64,000 bases of DNA, taken from NCBI GenBank assembly GCA_039196715.1, contig JBCCUP010000008.1, positions 5,488 through 69,487 of the forward strand, in the 5' to 3' direction. A program made the translations under genes and the position numbers. Of the stretch, positions 3,047 through 30,184 are shown piece after piece. The DNA comes from Pseudomonadota bacterium (lineage in GTDB: Bacteria > Pseudomonadota > Gammaproteobacteria > CALCKW01). The notes under the pieces were generated by a model. It saw nothing but the letters and a program-made list of their open reading frames with translations. It was not told where the DNA came from and made no database searches. Each line of letters opens with the position of its first letter. Position 1 is the stretch's first letter.

Positions 3047-4144
3047 ATGGCTGAGATCATTGTCAAGAACGTTCGCAAGCAATTCGACGACTTCGTCGCC
3101 GTGAAGGAGAGTTCCTTCACTGTTGACGACGGCGACTTCTTCATGCTGCTCGGGCCGTCGGGCTGCGGCAAGACCACGACGCTTCGTATGATTGCAGGCC
3201 TGGAACTTCCGACCGCTGGCCAGATCTTCCTCGACGGCGAGGAGATCGCGCAGAAGCCGCCGTCGCAGCGCGACATCGCGTTCGTGTTCCAGATGTTCGC
3301 GCTGTACCCGCACATGAACGTGCGCAAGAACATCTCCTACCCACTGGTCTCGCAGGGTATGGCGCGGGCCGATGTGCGGCGCAAAGTCGCCGAGGTGGCG
3401 GCTATCCTCGGCATCGAGGACATCCTCGATTCCCCCGTCGGCGGGCTCTCGGGCGGCGACCGACAGCGTGTGGCTCTCGGTCGTGCGATCGTGCGCGAGC
3501 CCAAGGCCTTCATGATGGACGAGCCACTCGGCGCCCTGGACGCGGAGTTTCGCGAACACATGGCGCAGGAGCTGCGGGCGCTGCACGACAGCATGGGTGC
3601 AACCACGGTGTACGTGACCCACGATCAGCTCGAAGCCATGCAGATGGGCGACAAGATCGTCGTGATGAACAACGCGGTGGTCGAGCAGTTCGGCACGCCA
3701 CGCGAAGTCTACGACACGCCCGCCACGTTGTTCGTCGCAAACTTCATCGGCTCGCCGTCGATGAACCTCCTGCCATTCAACGGTAACGTCTCGACCGGTG
3801 ATACCGAAGTGGCGCTGGCCGGCAGCACCCTGTCGGTACCGGAGGTGCGCGAGGCCGCGGCGGGTGAGCTGGTGCTCGGGGTGCGCCCGGAGCAGGTGCA
3901 GCTCACCGATTCGGGCGCTCTGCGCGGTGAGGTGATCACCACCGAATACCTCGGCACCACGCAGATCGTCACGGTGTCCACCGCACACGGGGAGCTCAAG
4001 GCGCGGGTCGGTTCAGACCGCGCTGTGCAGGTGGGAGACACCACCGGGCTCGCGATCAACGCGGAGACCGTGACGCTCTTCGACCAGGCATCGGGTCGAG
4101 CGTTGCGCTCGGCACTCAACGAGGACGTGTTAAGCCGTGGCTGA
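3047..4144 (+). CDS. ABC transporter ATP-binding protein (MalK/UgpC family) 1
   Basis: Walker A GPSGCGKTT, signature LSGGDRQRVALGRA, and a C-terminal TOBE-like regulatory domain. Confidence 0.9.
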   Translation: MAEIIVKNVRKQFDDFVAVKESSFTVDDGDFFMLLGPSGCGKTTTLRMIAGLELPTAGQIFLDGEEIAQKPPSQRDIAFVFQMFALYPHMNVRKNISYPLVSQGMARADVRRKVAEVAAILGIEDILDSPVGGLSGGDRQRVALGRAIVREPKAFMMDEPLGALDAEFREHMAQELRALHDSMGATTVYVTHDQLEAMQMGDKIVVMNNAVVEQFGTPREVYDTPATLFVANFIGSPSMNLLPFNGNVSTGDTEVALAGSTLSVPEVREAAAGELVLGVRPEQVQLTDSGALRGEVITTEYLGTTQIVTVSTAHGELKARVGSDRAVQVGDTTGLAINAETVTLFDQASGRALRSALNEDVLSRG

Positions 4145-8918: not shown

Positions 8919-10048
8919 TGGCGCGCATCAAACTGGGTATGGTCGGCGGCGGCAACGACGCCTTTATCGGTGCGGTGCACCGCATCGCAGCGCGGATCGA
9001 CGACAAGTACGAGCTGGTGGCCGGTGCGCTGAGTTCCACGCCGGAAAAGTCGCGGGTGAGCGGCGAGGCGCTTGGCCTCGAGCGGGTCTACGACGACTTT
9101 CAGCAGATGGCCGAGGCCGAGGCAGCGCGCGACGACGGCGTCGAAGCCGTGTCGATTGTCACGCCGAACCACGTGCATTGCGCAGCGGCCGTTGCGTTTC
9201 TGGAGAAGGGCATTCACGTCATCTGCGACAAGCCGCTCACCTCGACCCTTGACGACGCGCACACGCTGGTTGCAGCGGCCGAAGCCTCCGACGCGCTCTT
9301 CGTGCTCACGCACAACTACACCGGCTACCCGATGGTGCGGCACGCGCGCGAGATGGTCGTGAACGGCGACATTGGCGCGATCCGCGTGGTGCAAGTCGAG
9401 TACCCGCAGGACTGGCTGACCGTCGAGCAGGACTTCAAGCAGGCGCTCTGGCGCACCGACCCGAACCAGTCGGGCGCCGGCGGTTCGACCGGCGATATCG
9501 GCACCCACGCGTTCAACCTCGCCTGTTTCATCACCGGGCTCGAGGTCGAATCGCTCGCGGCCGACATCCAGGCCTTCGTGCCCGGGCGCCGCGTGGACGA
9601 TAACGCCCACGTGCTGCTTCGCTTCAACGGCGGTGCCCGCGGCATGCTGTGGTCGAGCCAGGTGGCACCGGGCAACGAGAACGCCTTGCGCATCCGCGTG
9701 TACGGCGAAACTGGCGGGCTCGAGTGGGCGCAGGAAGACCCGAATTACCTGCACTACACGCCCTTTGGTGAACCCAAGCGGCTGATCACGCGCAACGGCG
9801 CGGGTGCCGGCGATGCCGCGGCGCGCGTGAGCCGCGTACCACCTGGCCACCCGGAGGGTTACCTCGAGGGCTTTGCCAACCTCTACACCGAGGCGGCATC
9901 GGCCATCGAGGCGGCGCGATCTGGTGGGGCGCTCGCGAGCGATGTGGTCTTCCCGACGGTGCAGGACGGCTTGCGCGGCGTGCAGTTCGTCGCCGCCTGC
10001 GTCGCGTCCTCATCGCAAAACGCGGCGTGGGTGTCACTGGATCGGTGA
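8918..10048 (+). CDS. Gfo/Idh/MocA family NAD(P)-dependent oxidoreductase
   Basis: N-terminal Rossmann motif KLGMVGGGNDAFIGAVH and typical length of 376 aa. Confidence 0.85.
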   Translation: MARIKLGMVGGGNDAFIGAVHRIAARIDDKYELVAGALSSTPEKSRVSGEALGLERVYDDFQQMAEAEAARDDGVEAVSIVTPNHVHCAAAVAFLEKGIHVICDKPLTSTLDDAHTLVAAAEASDALFVLTHNYTGYPMVRHAREMVVNGDIGAIRVVQVEYPQDWLTVEQDFKQALWRTDPNQSGAGGSTGDIGTHAFNLACFITGLEVESLAADIQAFVPGRRVDDNAHVLLRFNGGARGMLWSSQVAPGNENALRIRVYGETGGLEWAQEDPNYLHYTPFGEPKRLITRNGAGAGDAAARVSRVPPGHPEGYLEGFANLYTEAASAIEAARSGGALASDVVFPTVQDGLRGVQFVAACVASSSQNAAWVSLDR

Positions 10049-10152
10049 ACCGCGCCGGGCGGCGAGGGCCGGTGCTTCAGATCAACCGTTGCCGGCGTCG
10101 GGCCTGTATCAGCAGGCCCAACCCGGCAACACGCACAGGAGGTGTGGGTTGA

Positions 10153-11000
10153 TGAAATTTGGCATGAACCTGTTGCTGTGGACAGGCGAATTGAGCGATG
10201 CGCTGCTGCCCGTGTTGGCGTCCTTGAAACGCATGGGGTATGACGGCGTTGAAGTGCCGCTGTTCAACCACGAGATCGACTATGCCAGCTGGGCGCGGCG
10301 TTTCGACGATATTGGCTTGGCACGTACTGCGGTCACGGTGCGCAACGCAGAAGACAACCCCATCAGTGCCGACACGCGAATCCGCCAGGCCGGTATCGAC
10401 GCCAACAAGCGCGCGGTGGATTGCTGTGCGGCGGTTGGGGCGACGCATTTGGTTGGGCCGTTCCATTCGGCGCTGGGCGCCTTTTCCGGCGCGGGACCTT
10501 CCGATGCCGAGCTGGCTCGCGGCATCGAATCGATGCGAGCAGTGTCAGAGCATGCGGAGTCCGTGGGTGTCACGCTGTGCGTGGAAGCCCTGAATCGATT
10601 CGAGTGTTACCTGCTGAACTCACACGATGAGGCAAGACGGTTCGTCAACGCGGTCGATCACCCGAATTGCGCGATCATGTACGACACCTTCCACGCCAAT
10701 ATCGAAGAGAAAAGCACGGCAGATGCCATTCGCCGCAACGCGGACGTCATTCGCCACGTGCACATCTCGGAGAATGACTGGAGCACACCGGGACAGGGCA
10801 GTGTGCGCTGGACAGAGACCTTCGACGCCTTGCACGACGTCGGCTACGACGGCTGGTTGATGATCGAAGCCTTCGGGTTGGCGCTACCTGAATTGGCCGC
10901 TGCCACGAAGATCTGGCGGCGGATGTACGACAGCGAAGAACAGCTGGCGCGCGACGGCTTGGCATTCATGCAGTCCGAATACAACCGCCGTTGGACGTGA
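10153..11000 (+). CDS. sugar phosphate isomerase/epimerase (xylose isomerase-like TIM barrel, hydroxypyruvate-isomerase/L-ribulose-epimerase-like)
   Basis: An AGGAGG RBS lies 8 nt upstream of the ATG at 10153. The sequence MKFGMNLLLW...GYDGVEVPL...HVHISEND is typical of the AP-endonuclease-2/xylose-isomerase fold. The ORF-track start at 9873 is an over-extension into the upstream gene. Confidence 0.75.
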
Positions 11001-11052
11001 TCGCGGCGCGACGACCCGGCAACCACAGAATCCGTTTCGCGCAGTCGCAGTG

Positions 11053-11340
11053 CGACAACCACAGTGGCTCGTTCGGCATCCGAGGCGCCGCTTCGCGCCT
11101 GTGAACACGCCACGGTCTCGTGGGAGCCGTGTCCTGGCGCAGCCAGACGCGGCGAAAACGGCGAACACGAAGCTCGCAGTCACTGCCGTGTTTCAGTCGG
11201 TCTGTGACAACCCGAATGGCTCGTTCGGCATCCAAGGCGCCGCTTTGCACTCACGGGTGAGATGTCGAGGCCTGCGAACATGCCACGGTCTCGTGGGAGC
11301 CGCATCCTGGCGAAGCCAGACGCGGCGAAAAGATCCGCGC
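11053..11340. repeat. two tandem imperfect copies of a ~153-bp unit in the convergent intergenic region; each copy contains GGCTCGTTCGGCATCC...CCACGGTCTCGTGGGAGCCG...GCCAGACGCGGCGAAAA
   Basis: Direct alignment of 11053-11205 against 11206-11340 is about 85% identical. The unit shares the GTGGGAGC core with the REP-like repeats further downstream. Confidence 0.8.
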
Positions 11341-22981: not shown

Positions 22982-23476
22982 TCAGATGCCTTGAACGCGC
23001 TTGGGCGCCCGCCGCGGTCGCGCTGCAAACAGCACCGGTGCCCAGAACAGCACCGAGCTGGCCACACCGAGAACCGCAATGCCGCTCAGCAGCGCAACGC
23101 CGATGCCGAGCGCGCCGAGCACCACCGTGCCACTGGTGATACCGCCGAGCCACACCGACCCACTCCAACTGCTGCCGGACAGACCGGGCAGCTCGAACCC
23201 CCCGAGCAGCAGCAACACCGGGCGCACCGAGAAAGCCACCTGCCCGGGACGCACCAGCCCCCACACCACGCCGGCCGCCAGCAGACCCACAGCGTACGTG
23301 ACGTTCAGCGGGGCGCGCTCGAGGTAGGCGAGCCAGACGCTGGCGGTGCCGACCGCGGCCACGCCGCAGGCCAGACCGCCGAGCAGCCCGACACCGATGC
23401 CGATCACACGCGTCACGAGACCCATGGTGTTCACTGCTTGGCTGAGGGAGGACCGCTGTCGCGCAGATTGCATGCC
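22982..23476 (-). CDS. hypothetical small membrane protein (Gly/Ala/Leu/Val-rich, about 165 aa)
   Basis: ORF immediately downstream of the MFS gene with a hydrophobic composition. It could be a GC-rich spurious ORF. Confidence 0.3.
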   Translation of the reverse strand, partial: GMQSARQRSSLSQAVNTMGLVTRVIGIGVGLLGGLACGVAAVGTASVWLAYLERAPLNVTYAVGLLAAGVVWGLVRPGQVAFSVRPVLLLLGGFELPGLSGSSWSGSVWLGGITSGTVVLGALGIGVALLSGIAVLGVASSVLFWAPVLFAARPRRAPKRVQGI

Positions 23477-23505: not shown

Positions 23506-24873
23506 TCAGCGCGGCCAGTGCCGATGGTGCTCGTCGATGACAAAGGGGTGTGCGTGCCTGGTCGCGGCGTGGTGGTGCGGGTGCCGGTGCGGCTCCGGGC
23601 CCTCCCACCCCTCGTGCACATGCTGGTGGTGATCGTCATGGGTGTGCAGGTGATCGTGGTCCAGTGCGTCGTGACGGTGCAGCAGCGCGTCCGGGTCATC
23701 GCGCGGCCAAAGCCGCACAGCGAGCAACAAGGCCAGGCCCGAAATGGCCGCATGGAGCCAAAACCAGACATCGACGGGCAACACCGCGCCGAGAAATCCG
23801 GCACTGGCGTACGCCAGCAACCAGATGCCGTGAGAGAGTGAAAAATTGGTGGCAAACAGGGCGCTGCGGTCGCTGTCGTGACACGACGCAATGATGATTC
23901 GACCCGAGGGTGTCAGGATCAGAGAGCCACCGACACCCACGAGAAACCAGACGAACAGCACAGCGGTGTGGGAACGCGTTGCAACCCCGAGGCCCAGACC
24001 GAGCAGTGCGACCAGCGCGCCGGACAACATCACGGTGCGTGTGTCGGTGCGCCGCAACAGGCCCGGCACACTCCAGGCCGCCAGAACCGCACCAACGCCC
24101 GCAGCACCGGCCGTCAAGGGCACCCAGTGCTCGGGCAGTTCAAAGTACTCCCGCACCAACACGACCGTGTTGACAATGACCAGGGCGCCGCTGAAGGAGA
24201 CGACTGCGTGCAGCGCCAGCAAACCGCGCAACCGCGGCGTCCGGGTGTAGGCGCTGATGCCGAACAGCAGATTGTGCAGCACGCCGCCGGCACGCTCGCT
24301 GGCCGCTGCCGACGGTACCCGACTCCACCAGACGAGCGCGGCAGAGCCGATCAGCAACACCGCCGAGAGGGCATAGAGTCGCGTGTGGTCGGCGACAAAG
24401 AGCAGCCCCGCGGCGAGCAGCGGACCCGCCATGCCCTCCAACTCCTGAGCAAGCCGAGACCAGCTCAGCGCCTTCACGTACTGCTCGTCGTCGAGGAGAT
24501 CGGGAATCGCAGCCTGGTATACCGGCGTGAACGCAGCCGAAAACATGTAGAACACCGCAACCAGCAGCACAAACGCAACACTGGAACCGACCACAGCCAA
24601 CCACAGCAACAGGCCCGCGCGGGCCAGATCGAGGGTGACAAGCCAATTGCGCCGCGGCAGGCGGTCGATGTACGCACCGACCACCGGCGCAACCGTGACG
24701 TAGACGAGCATCTTGCCGATCAGCGCGGTCGCGAGTAACGCGCCCGCTGCGTCAGGTCGAAAGGCGTGCGCGCTCAGGGCGAGCGCGACAACAACAAGGC
24801 CGTTGGCCACGAGTGAGAGCAACTGCGCAGCAAAGAGTCGCGCGAAGGCCCGGTTTTCGAGTGGTGAGGTCAT
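23506..24873 (-). CDS. MFS transporter with a histidine-rich C-terminal cytoplasmic tail
   Basis: 12-TM MFS core with start MTSPLENRAFARLF. The C-terminus reads HDALDHDHLHTHDDHHQHVHEGWEGPEPHRHPHHHAATRHAHPFVIDEHHRHW. It lies downstream of the riboswitch-cobW unit. The ORF-track extension to 25239 was rejected. Confidence 0.75.
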   Translation of the reverse strand: MTSPLENRAFARLFAAQLLSLVANGLVVVALALSAHAFRPDAAGALLATALIGKMLVYVTVAPVVGAYIDRLPRRNWLVTLDLARAGLLLWLAVVGSSVAFVLLVAVFYMFSAAFTPVYQAAIPDLLDDEQYVKALSWSRLAQELEGMAGPLLAAGLLFVADHTRLYALSAVLLIGSAALVWWSRVPSAAASERAGGVLHNLLFGISAYTRTPRLRGLLALHAVVSFSGALVIVNTVVLVREYFELPEHWVPLTAGAAGVGAVLAAWSVPGLLRRTDTRTVMLSGALVALLGLGLGVATRSHTAVLFVWFLVGVGGSLILTPSGRIIIASCHDSDRSALFATNFSLSHGIWLLAYASAGFLGAVLPVDVWFWLHAAISGLALLLAVRLWPRDDPDALLHRHDALDHDHLHTHDDHHQHVHEGWEGPEPHRHPHHHAATRHAHPFVIDEHHRHWPR

Positions 24874-25024
24874 CGCTTGGCACGCCCACTGGCGATCTGG
24901 ACTACCGGCATTCTGCGGCCACCGGCTGTGCCGCAGCAAGCACACGTGGCATGACCGCCTGAACGCTGTTGCCACCGGAGCGCGCGGCCCGGATTCAGCA
25001 GCGCGCGCCGACCCGCGAACGGGG

Positions 25025-26085
25025 TCAGGCCACCGGCCGAGTCTCGAAGTGGGTCTCCAGGCGCGTCTGGTCAAGATGAAAGCCGATACACACCAGGCGC
25101 GTGCGACGCGCCTCATCATCGCGCCAACGCCGATCGAAATGGGTGTCGAAGCGCGCACCGACCCCCTGCACCAGCAAGCGCATCGGCTTGTCAGGTACGG
25201 CGGCGTGGCCCTTGATCCGGAAGACCGTCTCCGCCCCAACGAGAGCGTCCAGGCCGGCCTGCAGCGCCTCGGGTGTCATCGGCGGCAGGTCGAGTACCAC
25301 GTGGCTGAACACGTCGTGCGCGTGGTGGTGGTCTTCGTCGTGGTCGTGGTGGTGGTCGTGGTGGGTGTGGATGTGGTCGATCGCGTCCTCGGCCGCCGCG
25401 CCCACACCGAGCAGCACACTCGGCGAAACAGCGCATTGCGCAGTCGGCAACAGCTTGACCTCGCGCGGCAGACGCGCGGTGATTGCCTCCGAGACGCTCG
25501 CCAGGGTGTCGTCCGACATCAGGTCGGTCTTGTTGACCAGCACGAGATCGGCCGCGCTGAGCTGGTCGTCGAACAACTCGACCAGCTCCGGTGTGTGGTC
25601 GAGGCTGTCGTCGGCGAGCCGCTGCGCCTGCACCGCGTCCGGGTCGTCGGCAAACCGACCGGCGGCCACCGCCGGCCCATCGACCACCGTGATCACCGCA
25701 TCGACCGTGCAGGCTGTGCGGATTTCCGGCCAGGCGAAGGCCTGCACCAGCGGCTTTGGCAGGGCGAGCCCCGAGGTTTCGATCAGGATGTGGTCGATCT
25801 GGTCACGGCGTTCGATCAACTGCTCGAGCACCGGATGGAACTCCTCCTGTACGGTGCAGCAGATGCAGCCGTTGGCGAGTTCGTAGATGCCGGGGCCGGA
25901 CTCGGTTTCGTCCTCGCACCCGATCGAACACTGGCGGACCAACTCGGTGTCGACGTCCATCGCGCCGAATTCGTTGACGATCACAGCGACCCGCAACCCT
26001 TCGGTGTTTTTCAACACGTTCTGGACCAGGGTGGTCTTGCCGCTGCCGAGAAAGCCGGTGACAACGGTGGCGGGCAACTTTTTCA
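25025..26085 (-). CDS. cobW: COG0523 GTPase metallochaperone, CobW-like (cobalamin biosynthesis cobalt chaperone)
   Basis: P-loop GFLGSGKTTL, metal-binding GCICCT, His-rich stretch HIHTHHDHHHDHDEDHHHAHD and a C-terminal CobW_C domain. The start ATG is at 26083-26085. Confidence 0.85.
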
Positions 26086-26508
26086 TGCGGGTGACTCGTC
26101 GAAGGGGGGCATTCGGGCGATGAAGTGGCCCTTGATGGCGGCAGGCCACTGTTTGTACGGTACGCGCCCGCTTTCGGACTGCGTGTAGAGCGCAGCGTAC
26201 GCAGCGAGCGCATCGGCCGACTCGGCCGACGGCTCAAAGCGTCCAATGACATAGCTGTATTTTGAGGGATCACACAAGTGCACATTGCAGGCGTGATCGC
26301 AGGCCATCAGGCACTGGACCGGACGTAACGACACATCGGAGTCGGCGAAGGCCGCCTGAAGCCGTTGCAGAAAGTGCTCGCCGCCACTCAGCCCGTCGGG
26401 CGCATTGGCCGCGCGATCCCGGTTGCAGGTGGTGCAGACGTGGAGCACGGCGGCGGAGGTGGATGACGCGGTCTCGTCCGCGCGTGCGGCAGTCGGTGTT
26501 CGGTCCAA
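26083..26508 (-). CDS. DUF1636 metal-binding protein (thioredoxin-like [2Fe-2S]-ferredoxin fold), commonly linked to cobW
   Basis: Cys/His motifs HVCTTCNRD and CLMACDHACNVHLC. The TTG start at 26506-26508 is preceded by GGGGAG. Its stop overlaps the cobW start (ATGA). The ORF-track N-terminal extension overlaps the riboswitch and was rejected. Confidence 0.65.
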   Translation of the reverse strand: MDRTPTAARADETASSTSAAVLHVCTTCNRDRAANAPDGLSGGEHFLQRLQAAFADSDVSLRPVQCLMACDHACNVHLCDPSKYSYVIGRFEPSAESADALAAYAALYTQSESGRVPYKQWPAAIKGHFIARMPPFDESPA

Positions 26509-26534
26509 AGTGAGCTCCCCGCTCGTCGGAACGT

Positions 26535-26725
26535 CATGCGACGGCAGGTCTCCTGGCTCCGGGTCACCGTGTGACGCGCCTTCCCGGTCCGGCGGGGTGC
26601 CGAGACCAGTGGCGTGTGCGGCACACTCCACCGTTACAGTTGCGGGGGCAGCTCGGGCATGTCACCCGATTCCCTTTTTTACACCTGCGACCCAGGTGGG
26701 TGGCAGGTGACCGATCGCTGGCGCC
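26535..26725 (-). promoter_or_regulatory. cobalamin (AdoCbl) riboswitch, RF00174-like
   Basis: The minus-strand sequence contains the canonical blocks in order: GGTCGCAGGTGTAAAAAAGGGAATCGGGTGA ... CCCCGCAACTGTAACGG ... GCCACTGG ... CGGGAAGGC ... GAGCCAGGAGACCTGCC (the B12 box). It sits directly upstream of DUF1636-cobW. Confidence 0.85.
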
Positions 26726-26811
26726 GAGTGTACCAGCAATCCCCGCCACACTCGCGTCGATTGCGACACCGGCCGCGCCGCGCACGACCCTCGAAGGACC
26801 CGCAAACGCGC

Positions 26812-28035
26812 CTAGGGTAACTCGCGCGCGAGCCGCACCAGGTGGCTCATGAGCCGCAGGAACGGCAAAGTCACCATGCCGGCCTCGTTGTTCCAGGTGC
26901 CGACCACGCAGGCCGTGCGCCCCGCGGTGTCCTCGAGCAGGAAGCTCTGGTTGATCACACCGGGCTCGGACCCACCCTTGTAGGCCACGCGGGCCCAGCG
27001 CGACGGGTCGAGGTGTCCGGGGTTCTGCACCACGGCGGGCGCGAACCCGACGGCACGCAGCGCAGCGCAGAGCTCACGCGCGCTCAAGAACCATTCGACG
27101 TCGAGCGCGACCGGGCCGGCATCGAACACCGAGAGCGGTGGCAACGGTCTCGACGCGAGTGCGTCGAGCACGCCCCGACGGGCAGCCGTGTCACCCACCC
27201 GCCACTGGGCCAACAGGTCGGCGTTGCGCGGGTCCTTGAGCCGGAAGACCGCGCCGGTGTCGAGAAACGGCGTGTTCCTTGGTGAGAGCGCTTCGAGCGC
27301 GTCGCGTCCCAGCGCGTCGATCAGCACATCGGTCGCGGTGTTGTCGCTCAATCGGATCATGTCTTCTGCCAGTGTGGCGATGCGGTGCGCCGAGCCGACC
27401 GGCGCGTCCTGCAAGCGGCCGCTCGGCAACGAGACGTGTTGCTGCGCAAGCGAGAGGCTCGCGTCGGCGGGGAGCCGGCCCGTGGCCTGCTGTTGCTGCA
27501 AGGCGCGCAGCACCAGCAGTTTGAACGCCGAGCCGACCGCAAGCGGCGTGTCGGCGTCGCGGGCAAACAGCAGCTCGCCATCGCGCTCGACGAGCAGGCT
27601 CACGGTGCCGCCAAACTCGGGCAGGACCTGTTCGATGTCCGCACGCGTTGGCGGGGTGCGCGGCTCGGTCAGGTTGAACCAGAGCGTGGTGAAGCCGCCC
27701 TCGGCGTCGAGCCGCGCAAACACCGGCACGACCGCCTCGTCGAAGTCGAGCAACCAGAAGGCCTCGTCCTCGCGCACGCCGCGTAACGCGCCGTGCGCCT
27801 CGAGGGTGTCGTCGCGGATGCCGGCCACACTGTCGGCAAACCCGGTGCCGCGGATCGCCGGTGTGAAGAACCCCTCGCGCACCTCGGCCGCGTTGAACAA
27901 CCGGGTCAACGCGGCGGGCACCGCGTCCGGTGCGGACGCCGGCGGCGATGGCGGTGCCGCACAGACTGCGAGTGCCGTGGCCAGCGCCAGCAGCCACGTG
28001 AGCCAGGCACCTCGAGCGAACCCGGTCCGCGTCAA
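26812..28035 (-). CDS. beta-lactamase-fold serine hydrolase (class A-like motifs), predicted lipoprotein or secreted
   Basis: Signal/lipobox-like N-terminus LLALATALAVCAAP. Motifs SAFK (SxxK), SDN and KGG (KTG-like). About 190 extra N-terminal residues precede the hydrolase domain. Its TTG start overlaps the cobO stop (TTGA). Confidence 0.65.
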   Translation of the reverse strand: MTRTGFARGAWLTWLLALATALAVCAAPPSPPASAPDAVPAALTRLFNAAEVREGFFTPAIRGTGFADSVAGIRDDTLEAHGALRGVREDEAFWLLDFDEAVVPVFARLDAEGGFTTLWFNLTEPRTPPTRADIEQVLPEFGGTVSLLVERDGELLFARDADTPLAVGSAFKLLVLRALQQQQATGRLPADASLSLAQQHVSLPSGRLQDAPVGSAHRIATLAEDMIRLSDNTATDVLIDALGRDALEALSPRNTPFLDTGAVFRLKDPRNADLLAQWRVGDTAARRGVLDALASRPLPPLSVFDAGPVALDVEWFLSARELCAALRAVGFAPAVVQNPGHLDPSRWARVAYKGGSEPGVINQSFLLEDTAGRTACVVGTWNNEAGMVTLPFLRLMSHLVRLARELP

Positions 28036-28634
28036 AATTCAACCCCGGCCTGCGCCTTGACCCCTTGTTCCTTGTAAGGGTGCTTGACCGCCCGGATTTC
28101 GTTGACCATGTCGGCGGCCTCGACCAGCCGGTCGGGCGCGTTGCGTCCGGTGATGACCACGTGCTGCATGGCCGGGCGGGCGGCGAGCGCCGCGAGCACA
28201 GCGTCGAGGTCAACGTACTCGTACTTCAGCGCCCAGTTCAGTTCGTCGAGCACCACGAGGCCGATCGCGTCATCGCCGAGCAGGCGCTCGGCCACCGACC
28301 AGGCGTGGGCTGCCGACGCCATGTCCTTGTCGCGGTCCTGGGTCTTCCAGGTAAACCCGTCGCCGAGGGTGTGGAACTCGACCTGCTCGTAGGCGTCGAG
28401 CAGGTCGCGTTCGGCTGTCGCCATGGCGCCCTTGATGAACTGCACCACGCCCACACCCATGCCGTGGCCGATGGCACGCAGCGCCATACCGAAGGCCGCG
28501 GTCGACTTGCCCTTGCCCGTGCCGGTGTTGACTATCACCAGGCCCTTCTCGGTGGTGGCCTTGGCCTGCTTCTTTTCGTACCCCGCGTTGCGTTTCTCTG
28601 CAAAGCGCTGGTGTTTTGCCTGGTCGTCGTCCAC
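28035..28634 (-). CDS. cobO: cob(I)yrinic acid a,c-diamide adenosyltransferase (corrinoid adenosyltransferase, CobO/BtuR type)
   Basis: Collinear with Pseudomonas CobO: GLVIVNTGTGKGKSTAAFGMALRAIGHGMGVGVVQFIKG...VVLDELNWALKYEY...VVITGRNA...IRAVKHPYKEQGVKAQAGVEF. A GTG start follows a GAGGGGG RBS. Confidence 0.9.
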
Positions 28635-28740
28635 GGGTTCCCCCTCACTCGGTGTTGGCTGTGCGTGCGGCCTGACTATACCGCAGCGATTCTCTGCACA
28701 CGCGCATGGAGTGGCGCACGGCATTGCTGCAAAATACCGC

Positions 28741-30184
28741 AATGCCCTACCTGCCCCTCTTCCTCGACAGCACCGACCGCAACGCCCTGCTGGTGGGCGG
28801 TGGTGTGGTCGCAACCCGCAAGGCCGAGCTGCTGCTGCGCGCGGGCATGCGGCTGTCCGTGATCGCGCCAACCATCCAGGCGGCGCTGGAAGCGAATCCG
28901 AACGTCTGCTGCCAGCACCGCCGCTTCGCACCGGATGACCTCGACGGTGCCGACCTCGTGTTCGCCGCGACCGACGACCCGGCGCTCAACCGCGAGATCG
29001 TCGCGCTGTGCCAGGTGCGCGGCGTGTTGTGCAACGCCGCGACCGACAGCCAGGGCGGCGATTTCATCCTGCCCTCGGTCATCGACCGCGACCCGATCCA
29101 GGTCGCCATCTCCACGAGCGGGGCCTCGCCGCTGCTCGCCCGGCTGATCCGCAGCCGCCTCGAGACCCTGTTGCCGATGAGCTACGCGCGCCTCGCGGCG
29201 CTGCTCGAACGGTTCCGCGGCCAGGTCAAGCGGCGTGTGCCGGCGAAGCAACGCCGCCGCTTCTGGCAGGAGATCCTCGAGGGACCGGTCGCCGATCTGG
29301 TGCACAGCGGCCACGACGACGAAGCCGAGACCGTGTTGGGTCGACTGCTCGACAACCCCGAGGAGGTCGACTCCGACGGTGAGGTGTACATCGTCGGCGC
29401 CGGCCCGGGCGACCCCGACCTCCTGACTGTGCGCGCGCTGCGCCTGTTGCAGCAGGCGGATGTTGTCGTCTGGGACCGTCTGGTCTCGCCGCCGATTCGC
29501 GCGCTCATTCCGACCTCCGCTGAGGCCATCTACGCCGGCAAACGCCGCAGCGAGCACCAGATCCCGCAGGACGACCTCAACCTGCTGCTGGTCGAACTCG
29601 CACGCTCAGGCAAGCGGGTGTGCCGACTGAAGGGCGGCGACCCCTTCGTGTTCGGCCGCGGCGGCGAAGAAATCGAGACCCTGGTGGCGCACGGGGTGCG
29701 CTTTCAGGTGGTGCCCGGCATCACCGCCGCCAACGGCTGCGCCGCCTACGCCGGCATCCCGCTGACCCACCGCGACCATGCGCAGAGCGTGAGCTTTCAC
29801 ACCGGCAACCTGAAGGCCGGTGAACTCGTGCTCGACTGGTCACGCATGAGCGACCCGCAACAGACCCTGGTGTTCTACATGGGCACCGCGAGTCTGCCGA
29901 TCATCCAGCGCGAACTCGTGGCCCACGGCCGGTCGGCAGACACCCCCGCCGCGCTGATACAGCAGGGCACCACACCCCACCAGCGGGTCGCGGTCGGCAC
30001 GCTCGACAGCCTCCACCAGGTCGCAACCGACGCAGGCTTCGAACCGCCGTGTCTGATCGTGGTTGGCGACGTGGTCAAGCTCTACGCCACGCTGCGCTGG
30101 TACCGCACCGGCGCCGACGCCGTGGACGCGAGCACCGGTTGGTTCGACACCGCGGCAACCTCGGCGGCACGGCACGCCGACTAG
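28741..30184 (+). CDS. cysG: siroheme synthase (CysG): uroporphyrinogen-III C-methyltransferase / precorrin-2 dehydrogenase / sirohydrochlorin ferrochelatase
   Basis: N-terminus YLPLFLDSTDRNALLVGGGVVATRKAELL (NAD-binding dehydrogenase/chelatase domain). The C-terminal SUMT domain reads VGAGPGDPDLLTVRALRLLQQADVVVWDRLVS and GGDPFVFGRGGEE. The start is taken as ATG 28741; the ORF-track start at 28706 is an alternative. Confidence 0.88.

Follow-up and report, generated by a model that had tools for sequence, protein, structure and literature searches.

In a 64,000-nt stretch of the gammaproteobacterial contig JBCCUP010000008.1 (the window, in whose coordinates all positions are given), a minus-strand operon opens with a cobalamin riboswitch, continues with genes for a DUF1636 protein and the cobalt chaperone CobW, and leads into a gene for a permease of the major facilitator superfamily (MFS) that ends in a His-rich tail. 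An earlier note on this DNA had proposed a novel cobalt acquisition module in which the MFS protein would be a B12-repressed Co(II) importer or, alternatively, a metal exporter balancing the CobW supply. Here, we describe the locus, the family to which the permease is assigned and the genomic contexts of its relatives, and we weigh what the permease may do in a B12-controlled operon.

Results

The head of the operon

The 5' leader of the operon contains an adenosylcobalamin (AdoCbl)-type riboswitch aptamer (26526..26731, minus strand). The match to RF00174 reaches 113.8 bits (gathering threshold, 31.5; E = 9e-28), spans the full model (1-189 of 189, read from 26731 to 26526) with the B12 box included, and is the sole Rfam match in the 64 kb window, in agreement with the AdoCbl riboswitch that the earlier note had recognised. 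Ligand-dependent repression is predicted from the aptamer match. Eighteen nucleotides after the aptamer, on the same strand, comes the TTG start of the DUF1636 gene, and cobW is next.

The DUF1636 gene (26083..26508, minus strand) encodes a thioredoxin-like, Cys-rich protein of 141 aa counted from the TTG (PF07845, 111.7 bits; gathering threshold, 31.6), with CTTC and CLMACDHAC in its translation. The TTG at 26508, which has GGGGAG 7 nt ahead of it, is the most plausible start, and the TGA stop overlaps the ATG of cobW as ATGA. A related fold, that of a thioredoxin-like [2Fe-2S] ferredoxin, has been proposed (PMC4520260). The product of cobW (25025..26086, minus strand; 353 aa) is a COG0523 GTPase that scores 465.6 bits with the TIGR02475 equivalog model (cutoff, 332.1), is matched by PF02492 and PF07683 (the CobW_C domain), and carries a Walker A motif (GFLGSGKTT), the metal motif GCICCT and the His-rich stretch HIHTHHDHHHDHDEDHHHAHD. 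The profile matches and the translations thus agree with what had been read from the sequence alone, namely a TTG-start Cys/His protein joined by an ATGA overlap to a COG0523 GTPase with GCICCT. CobW is a Co(II) chaperone (PMC7689651), and in Phaeobacter inhibens a DUF1636 gene with a cobalamin riboswitch in its 5' untranslated region stands first in a cobalamin biosynthesis operon (bioRxiv 10.64898/2025.12.19.695462); the riboswitch-DUF1636-cobW part of the locus is ordinary.

The permease is assigned to the NreB/NrsD family

The gene behind cobW (23506..24873, minus strand) encodes a 455-aa MFS permease with a 12-transmembrane (12-TM) core and a cytoplasmic His-rich tail. Its Pfam matches are to the MFS_1 and MFS_3 models only (PF07690, 78.9 bits), which places it in no established cobalt-importer family (CbiMNQO, NiCoT, HupE/UreJ or CbtAB). 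Against TIGR00900 (DHA3, 2.A.1.21) it scores 199.1 bits, below the cutoff of 319.6, and by this curated threshold it is related to the DHA3 subfamily and not a member of it. The 1622 homologues in the protein collection are all labelled just 'MFS transporter', and relatives are encoded in at least 432 species-level genomes. Over residues 54-389, the permease is 41-43% identical to plasmid genes annotated as 'nirA: nickel resistance membrane nickel efflux protein / ncrA: Metal Resistance', and reaches 46% identity with a pSymA locus of S. meliloti 1021 (a region unannotated in the plasmid collection) that we take to be the NreB homologue reported for Rm1021 (PMC6044271). NreB is reported to be a Ni2+/H+ antiporter with the homologues NirA, NcrA and NrsD (PMC9195940), and NrsD is an MFS protein with a His-rich C-terminal metal-binding region (PMC4284471). 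By sequence and architecture, the permease is assigned to the Ni(Co) efflux proteins of the NreB/NrsD/NcrA/NirA type and is not an orphan MFS protein, a placement made from the annotated nirA/ncrA genes and the pSymA locus, with A. xylosoxidans NreB and Synechocystis NrsD compared by description. From the family, Ni(II)/Co(II) efflux activity is predicted. With the permease so placed and the DUF1636 head already described, a novel cobalt acquisition module no longer serves as the leading reading of the locus.

The AlphaFold (AF2) model has a mean predicted local distance difference test (pLDDT) score of 88 and a confident 12-TM core (14 helical segments, 12 of them read as TM). PDB sequence and fold searches returned generic DHA/MFS matches only, the best solved folds in Foldseek being the drug:H+ antiporters NorA and MdfA (DHA), and no solved structure of the NreB/NrsD family was found. 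In all the context groups described below, conservation is 94% or higher at the core polar residues K54, R74, R85, D125, R140, E146, N235, D335, R336 and H348, which argues for one transport chemistry. A single-protein metagenome scan yielded mostly partial matches to the C-terminal part or the tail and no new close relatives.

Relatives are found in B12-controlled and in efflux-type contexts

The contexts of relatives were compared by neighbouring-open-reading-frame (ORF) clustering and Pfam checks on 80 species-level loci, with individual homologue look-ups added. Cmscan covered 45 of the 80 genome loci, and the other 35, mostly RcnR-linked, were covered by the less sensitive combination of nhmmer and a B12-box regular expression. 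Eight loci (Neptuniibacter, Motiliproteus and Oceanospirillaceae metagenome-assembled genomes [MAGs]) have an RF00174 riboswitch (57-86 bits) followed, in this order, by genes for DUF4198, CbiM, an L-type component, CbiQ, CbiO and the MFS permease, with genes for a ChlI/ChlD-type chelatase subunit, CobO, CbiA, CbiD and CbiJ behind the permease; in several loci the cbiO stop overlaps the MFS start. No riboswitch was found by cmscan in the 37 other species-level genome loci scanned, and nhmmer with the regular expression, run over all loci, returned only the eight already found. The homologue look-ups added two further riboswitch-cbi-MFS operons (L087, and L088 from Aliamphritea ceti). In total, a riboswitch lies upstream of the MFS gene on the same strand in 12 loci (the window, L082, L002, L013, L015, L018, L019, L023, L032, L078, L087 and L088), and in five more loci cbi or cobW is directly upstream and the contig end precedes any riboswitch position. 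In the Oceanospirillales-type operons, that is, in all of the 12 other than the window and L082, the chelatase subunit encoded after the MFS gene is a fused ChlI/ChlD-type (AAA + VWA) protein (operon positions about 9400-11300), so that the permease gene is flanked directly by the cobalt importer on one side and by the chelatase motor on the other; no CobW is encoded within 8 kb in these operons.

The closest relatives of the window protein show a second design. The gene for P0002 (93% identity) lies in a riboswitch-DUF1636-cobW-MFS arrangement, L082 (the 93%-identical relative) retains the 3' part of the riboswitch at the contig end (42.1 bits), and P0003 (77%) has cobW-MFS. For P0004 (75%) and P0005 (72%), the gene of a cbiO-type ABC ATPase overlaps the MFS start, P0006 (55%) follows DUF4198-CbiM-L-CbiQ-CbiO, and cbiQ-cbiO-MFS is found in a further lineage, Chromatiaceae (L072). 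With cbiO upstream in the 72-75% relatives, the clade keeps a cobalt/B12 gene ahead of the MFS gene though the partner differs. In all 80 species-level loci, CobW and DUF1636 are absent within 8 kb (tblastn with the window proteins as queries), and a conserved cobW-MFS module as a general rule was dropped; the CobW linkage is confined to the closest relatives of the window (77-93% identity) and is not a family trait. Of the linkage to which the earlier note had drawn attention, the pairing of a His-rich tail with a riboswitch thus recurs, in 12 loci and two operon designs, and the part played by CobW is local.

Other relatives have contexts of efflux type. A gene for a 92-aa RcnR/CsoR-type repressor (PF02583) directly adjoins the MFS gene in ~25 loci, mostly from alphaproteobacteria, plus Achromobacter and Pseudoxanthomonas, and genes for HupE_UreJ_2, NicO-like and DedA-like proteins are often near; neither the window nor the B12-linked loci have a PF02583 gene beside the MFS gene. 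The MFS gene of L012 and L031 comes fourth after OEP-HlyD-ACR_tran, which is the nrsBACD layout. Both kinds of context mirror nrsBACD and the control of nrsD, since nrsD is part of nrsBACD and also under the RcnR-like repressor InrS (PMC4284471). The neighbours of relatives in other contexts (redoxin, amidohydrolase, peptidase M19, MCP and others) show no pattern. In a Rhodospirillaceae MAG (L041), a chrB-b RNA motif (RF03086, 64.5 bits; 3161-3208, plus strand) was observed ~140 nt downstream of an NreB-like MFS gene, just upstream of the next ORF.

The His-rich tail is a conserved module

The C-terminal His-rich module covers residues 390-455 (23509..23706, minus strand) and follows the motif HxH-x4-HxHxHxHDxHHxHxHEGWEGPEPHxHPHxH-x4-HxHx[FY]VIDxHHxxWP. 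The tail had been called extremely His-rich, and the last 75 residues do contain 20 His. It is also kept in relatives: 18 His are invariant in 25 diverse relatives (45-77% identical overall), and the tails of 120 homologues align in register, so it is not low-complexity sequence or compositional noise. In the AF2 model, the tail forms, at moderate confidence (pLDDT 57-79), four short beta strands, which fits an arrangement of alternating His on one face. Its median length is 68 residues with 20 His in B12-linked copies and 52 residues with 9 His in RcnR-linked copies; the long form (~68 residues, 20 His) occurs in the B12-linked copies, in many copies of unknown context and in the RND-linked L012.

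Among 1.84 billion representatives searched with phmmer, the 66-residue tail had only 45 matches, all C-terminal, which are too few for mapping every scaffold that bears the tail. Among the tail carriers are EamA/DMT-type permeases, encoded on the plus strand in L093 (2095-3306; PF00892, 93 bits), L094 (6242-7321), L098 (6077-7147) and L103 (109-273), that end in the same His-rich motif (…HxHTHDDHHQH…EPHxHxHxH…HxHPHYPDxHHRHxH). In L094, the tailed EamA gene is convergent with a riboswitch-cbiM-cbiQ-cbiO operon, and probably likewise in L103 (riboswitches, 114.5 and 115.1 bits). Plasmid matches of these proteins are annotated only as 'DMT family transporter', and by family description the proteins may be CnrT-like. 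The tail thus seems to be a portable module, borne by two transporter scaffolds that both occur beside B12-controlled cobalt importers.

B12-linked copies share a sequence signature

In a neighbour-joining tree (midpoint-rooted, without support values), the B12-linked copies fall into two basal clades, apart from the RcnR-linked clade. They share S20, P40, Y119, E144, P252, L320 and N343; of the 120 best homologues, 22 carry this combination. Context does not follow strictly from the signature: L072 is cbi-linked but lacks it, and P0011 and L027 carry it outside any B12 context.

Two loci were observed outside this pattern. In L089 (944-7174), a clade-II MFS gene with the B12 signature stands alone between DDE transposase genes, away from cbi or B12 genes, a layout that suggests that the MFS gene can move as a unit. 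In L090 (2265-8374), the gene of the long-tailed, non-signature protein P0018 has cobS ~1 kb upstream of it and cobT (DBI_PRT) at a distance of 4 kb, and no riboswitch, which is a further, weak hint of a B12 neighbourhood outside the two B12 clades.

The spacer between cobW and the permease gene

The permease gene is separated from cobW by a 151-nt spacer (24874..25024, minus strand) without a recognisable terminator, promoter or conserved structure; no promoter-like and no terminator-like site was found in the 151 nt. The earlier note had pointed to a spacer with a 7-bp-stem hairpin here, and both exist, the hairpin being unremarkable. Its stem (CTGCGGC/GCCGCAG, 24913-24936) has no U-tract, the fold of the spacer is less stable than most shuffles (z = +1.31), the stem is broken by two uncompensated changes in L082, and the spacer is not alignable with that of L085, from a 77%-identical relative. 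On these grounds, the hairpin and the spacer were rejected as a regulatory element. The cobW-MFS adjacency itself is maintained in relatives of 93% and 77% identity, and the DUF1636-cobW transcript would very probably continue through the spacer into the permease gene and perhaps also into the small membrane protein gene behind it.

By inspection of the sequence, no Shine-Dalgarno element is evident ahead of the MFS ATG. The GC content at third codon positions (GC3) is 0.79 in the MFS gene and 0.85-0.88 in cobW, cobO, cysG and icd, and the lower value may hint mildly at later acquisition. In this region, a simple gene picker based on GC3 favoured opposite-strand ORFs over the MFS gene.

Flanking genes and cobalt importers in the window

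Behind the MFS gene lies a gene for a small Gly-rich membrane protein of 147 aa with about four hydrophobic segments by inspection (22982..23425, minus strand). It has no Pfam match and no conserved His, Cys or acidic residues, and was recognised through positional homologues of 27-78% identity (L082 3194-3637, L085 1825-2268, L083 2376-2801 and L086 2154-2507). In the clade of the window, the protein (141-147 aa) is kept directly behind the MFS gene whether the upstream partner is cobW or cbiO, and its gene is possibly the last of the operon. Upstream of the riboswitch are genes for the corrinoid adenosyltransferase CobO (28032..28640, minus strand; PF02572, 213.9 bits) and, divergently, for CysG/siroheme synthase, a uroporphyrinogen-III methylase (28706..30184, plus strand; PF00590, PF13241, PF10414 and PF14824). 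cobO overlaps by 4 nt a 407-aa gene of the Beta-lactamase2 family (28035..26812, minus strand) whose end is ~80 nt short of the riboswitch; the pairing of cobO with a serine-hydrolase-like gene is unexpected.

By tblastn, the window contains no homologue of CbiM, CbiQ or DUF4198, and it lacks the NiCoT signature HxxDADH, as expected from the earlier statement that no CbiMNQO or NiCoT importer is visible in it; CbtAB, which that statement also named, was not searched for.

Discussion

The reading that we favour, holding it about evenly balanced between right and wrong, is that the permease acts as a Ni/Co:H+ efflux valve and is co-expressed with the machinery for cobalt supply. At low B12, the riboswitch would permit expression of the operon, and CobW would load Co(II) for the chelatase. 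The permease, like its homologues, would act as a divalent-metal:H+ antiporter working from the cytoplasm to the outside, with the cytoplasmic tail of ~20 His capturing or sensing surplus metal, and would expel the Ni(II), and any excess Co(II), that enters when cobalt uptake or trafficking is on; the buffered metal pool would then favour correct metalation of CobW and the corrin, and mis-metalation of CobW or the chelatase would be avoided. Most B12-linked copies would be coupled translationally to the last gene of a riboswitch-controlled ECF importer (DUF4198-CbiM-L-CbiQ-CbiO), and in the window lineage cobW stands ahead of the permease gene in place of the ECF importer gene. Given a core as in the efflux-context copies and the coupling to a complete ECF importer, a protein that is still a metal:H+ antiporter is the simplest reading, and with that importer ahead of most B12-linked copies a second one is less needed. 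The EamA/DMT tail carriers beside riboswitch-cbiM-Q-O operons (L094 and L103) fit an efflux valve as well, and so does the link made by CoaR between cobalt efflux and the B12 pathway in Synechocystis (PMC4284471). What the earlier note had offered as its alternative, an exporter balancing the CobW supply, therefore moves to the front, and the importer gives up its lead, given that relatives lie behind RcnR/CsoR repressors or in RND operons and that an ECF importer precedes most B12-linked copies.

A number of observations weigh against an efflux valve. The direction of transport is deduced from homologues of 41-48% identity. Cobalamin riboswitches ordinarily turn expression down when B12 is plentiful, and since the known transporters under such control are importers, an exporter made at times of cobalt need runs counter to intuition. 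For metal exporters, induction by the exported metal is usual, and no metal-sensor gene adjoins the window MFS gene. The B12-linked copies stand apart from the RcnR-linked ones in the tree, and several of their signature substitutions lie in TM1, TM4, TM10 and TM11, so that their specificity or coupling may differ. The absence of an importer from the operon and the 64 kb (CbiM, CbiQ, DUF4198 and NiCoT searched) fits an importer role of the permease equally. On such an importer reading, which we consider unlikely, the permease would be a B12-repressed Co(II) importer from a branch of the NreB family with changed direction or coupling, and the His-rich tail would receive the imported Co(II) and pass it to CobW or the chelatase. 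The MFS gene is part of the B12 riboswitch regulon in 12 loci, a regulon in which the known transporters are importers (PMC7689651, section 5.1.2); the window lineage has CobW, which with its own His-rich stretch makes a hand-over conceivable, and no other importer among those searched for in the window; and the signature changes of the separate B12-linked clades are in helices expected to line the cavity. Against this, every relative characterised so far is an exporter (PMC9195940, PMC4284471), the permease does not differ in its core polar residues from the RcnR-linked and RND-linked copies, most B12-linked loci already have a complete ECF importer ahead of the permease gene, often with overlapping stop and start, L072 is linked to cbiQ-cbiO although it lacks the clade signature, and the same long tail occurs in L012, whose gene is part of an RND efflux operon. 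For an importer, one would have to suppose both that polarity was reversed and that the permease duplicates the ECF system beside it.

Two other explanations appear less probable than an importer. Zn(II) binds COG0523 proteins tightly, and the permease might serve another metal such as Zn(II), or its tail might be mainly a cytoplasmic cobalt buffer or store; the ~20 His per tail could bind several ions, and nrsD is induced also by Cu and Zn (PMC4284471), but no Zn-related neighbours were seen, the characterised family members act on Ni and weakly on Co (PMC9195940), and the intact, conserved 12-TM core argues for transport, so we give this very little weight. It is also improbable, if slightly less so, that the two genes are adjacent by chance and that the MFS gene serves general Ni/Co resistance and is transcribed from a promoter within the spacer, free of the riboswitch. 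The length of the spacer and its lack of conservation with L085, the missing Shine-Dalgarno element, the GC3 difference from cobW and its neighbours and the CobW linkage in none of the 80 species-level loci would suit such an arrangement, but the spacer has no promoter-like or terminator-like site, the genes share a strand and stay paired at 93% and 77% protein identity, and in the next relatives (72-75%) the MFS gene is joined to cbiO in cobalt-uptake operons.

Each of the components is already known: the riboswitch, CobW, DUF1636 and MFS nickel exporters with His-rich tails. In the literature, we did not find a description of recurrent cobalamin-riboswitch control of a His-tailed NreB-type MFS protein, encoded within operons for cobalt uptake and B12 synthesis or beside CobW and bearing a strongly conserved long His module, with an earlier prediction under the Cbt name (CbtC-CbtG) being possible; CbtX was rejected as the same family, as it is COG3366 and not MFS. 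With a little less than even confidence, we suggest that a branch of the NreB family is a dedicated part of the B12 regulon, either as a Co(II) importer, the first of MFS type, whose 20-His tail would feed CobW or the chelatase, or as a Ni-proofreading exporter tied to a promiscuous cobalt importer; this confidence is for the two taken jointly, against a mere overflow valve or a chance adjacency. Either, if true, would be a new principle of cobalt supply for B12 synthesis. Ni far exceeds Co in seawater, where a proofreading exporter would expel co-imported Ni and give net selectivity for cobalt. Import and export would then be co-expressed and together shape metal selectivity, whereas an importer would mean a new cobalt-uptake family and a polarity change within a metal-efflux family. 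How the right metal gets into B12 is an active question, studied mainly via CobW metalation and buffered metal pools, and a riboswitch-controlled permease between importer and chelatase genes, or beside CobW, suggests a membrane step that is omitted from current schemes (PMC7689651, Table 1, Fig. 4). For genes now labelled only 'MFS transporter', the 18-His tail motif is a usable signature, and cultured hosts with complete genomes exist (Neptuniibacter spp. and Aliamphritea ceti).

Several known systems share parts of this arrangement. CnrT (TC 2.A.7), from the cnrCBAT nickel/cobalt determinant, has a His-rich C-terminus and has its DMT family in common with the tailed EamA permeases of L093, L094 and L098, whereas its scaffold differs from that of the window MFS protein. 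As a DMT-family member, it is counted among the metal-resistance transporters of C. metallidurans (PMC7019866). A conceptual precedent for cobalt efflux tied to the state of the B12 pathway is CoaR-CoaT of Synechocystis, where CoaR, a regulator with a precorrin-isomerase-like domain, couples cobalt efflux to that pathway (PMC4284471); unlike the window operon, CoaR-CoaT combines a protein regulator with a P-type ATPase, is cobalt-induced, has no riboswitch and has no sequence relationship to the window proteins. The operon heads of the Phaeobacter inhibens type share the riboswitch-DUF1636(-cobW) start, whereas the window operon is short, has the NreB-like permease last, and has cobN and other biosynthesis genes not adjacent. 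The ECF cobalt importers under B12 riboswitches (CbiMNQO, and the K-M-L-Q-O variant with DUF4198) share one regulon and operon with the MFS gene in the ten Oceanospirillales-type loci listed above and in L081; the MFS protein is unrelated to them in fold and family, and the window itself has no Cbi genes.

Closest of all is the NreB/NrsD/NcrA/NirA family, which we take to be TCDB 2.A.1.31 and which includes NreB of Achromobacter xylosoxidans 31A and Cupriavidus metallidurans, NrsD of Synechocystis, and NcrA/NirA of Hafnia and Klebsiella. It has in common with the window protein the 12-TM MFS core and the His-rich cytoplasmic C-terminus, and the RcnR/InrS-type and RND-operon contexts of nrsD recur in relatives of the window protein. 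In the window, however, control upstream is by a cobalamin riboswitch and not by a metal sensor, and the B12-linked copies differ from the known family members in their neighbours (CobW, or an ECF importer of cobalt plus genes of B12 biosynthesis), in a tail that is longer than that of RcnR/RND-linked copies and has an extra HEGWEGPEPHxHPH segment, and in the seven clade-specific substitutions.

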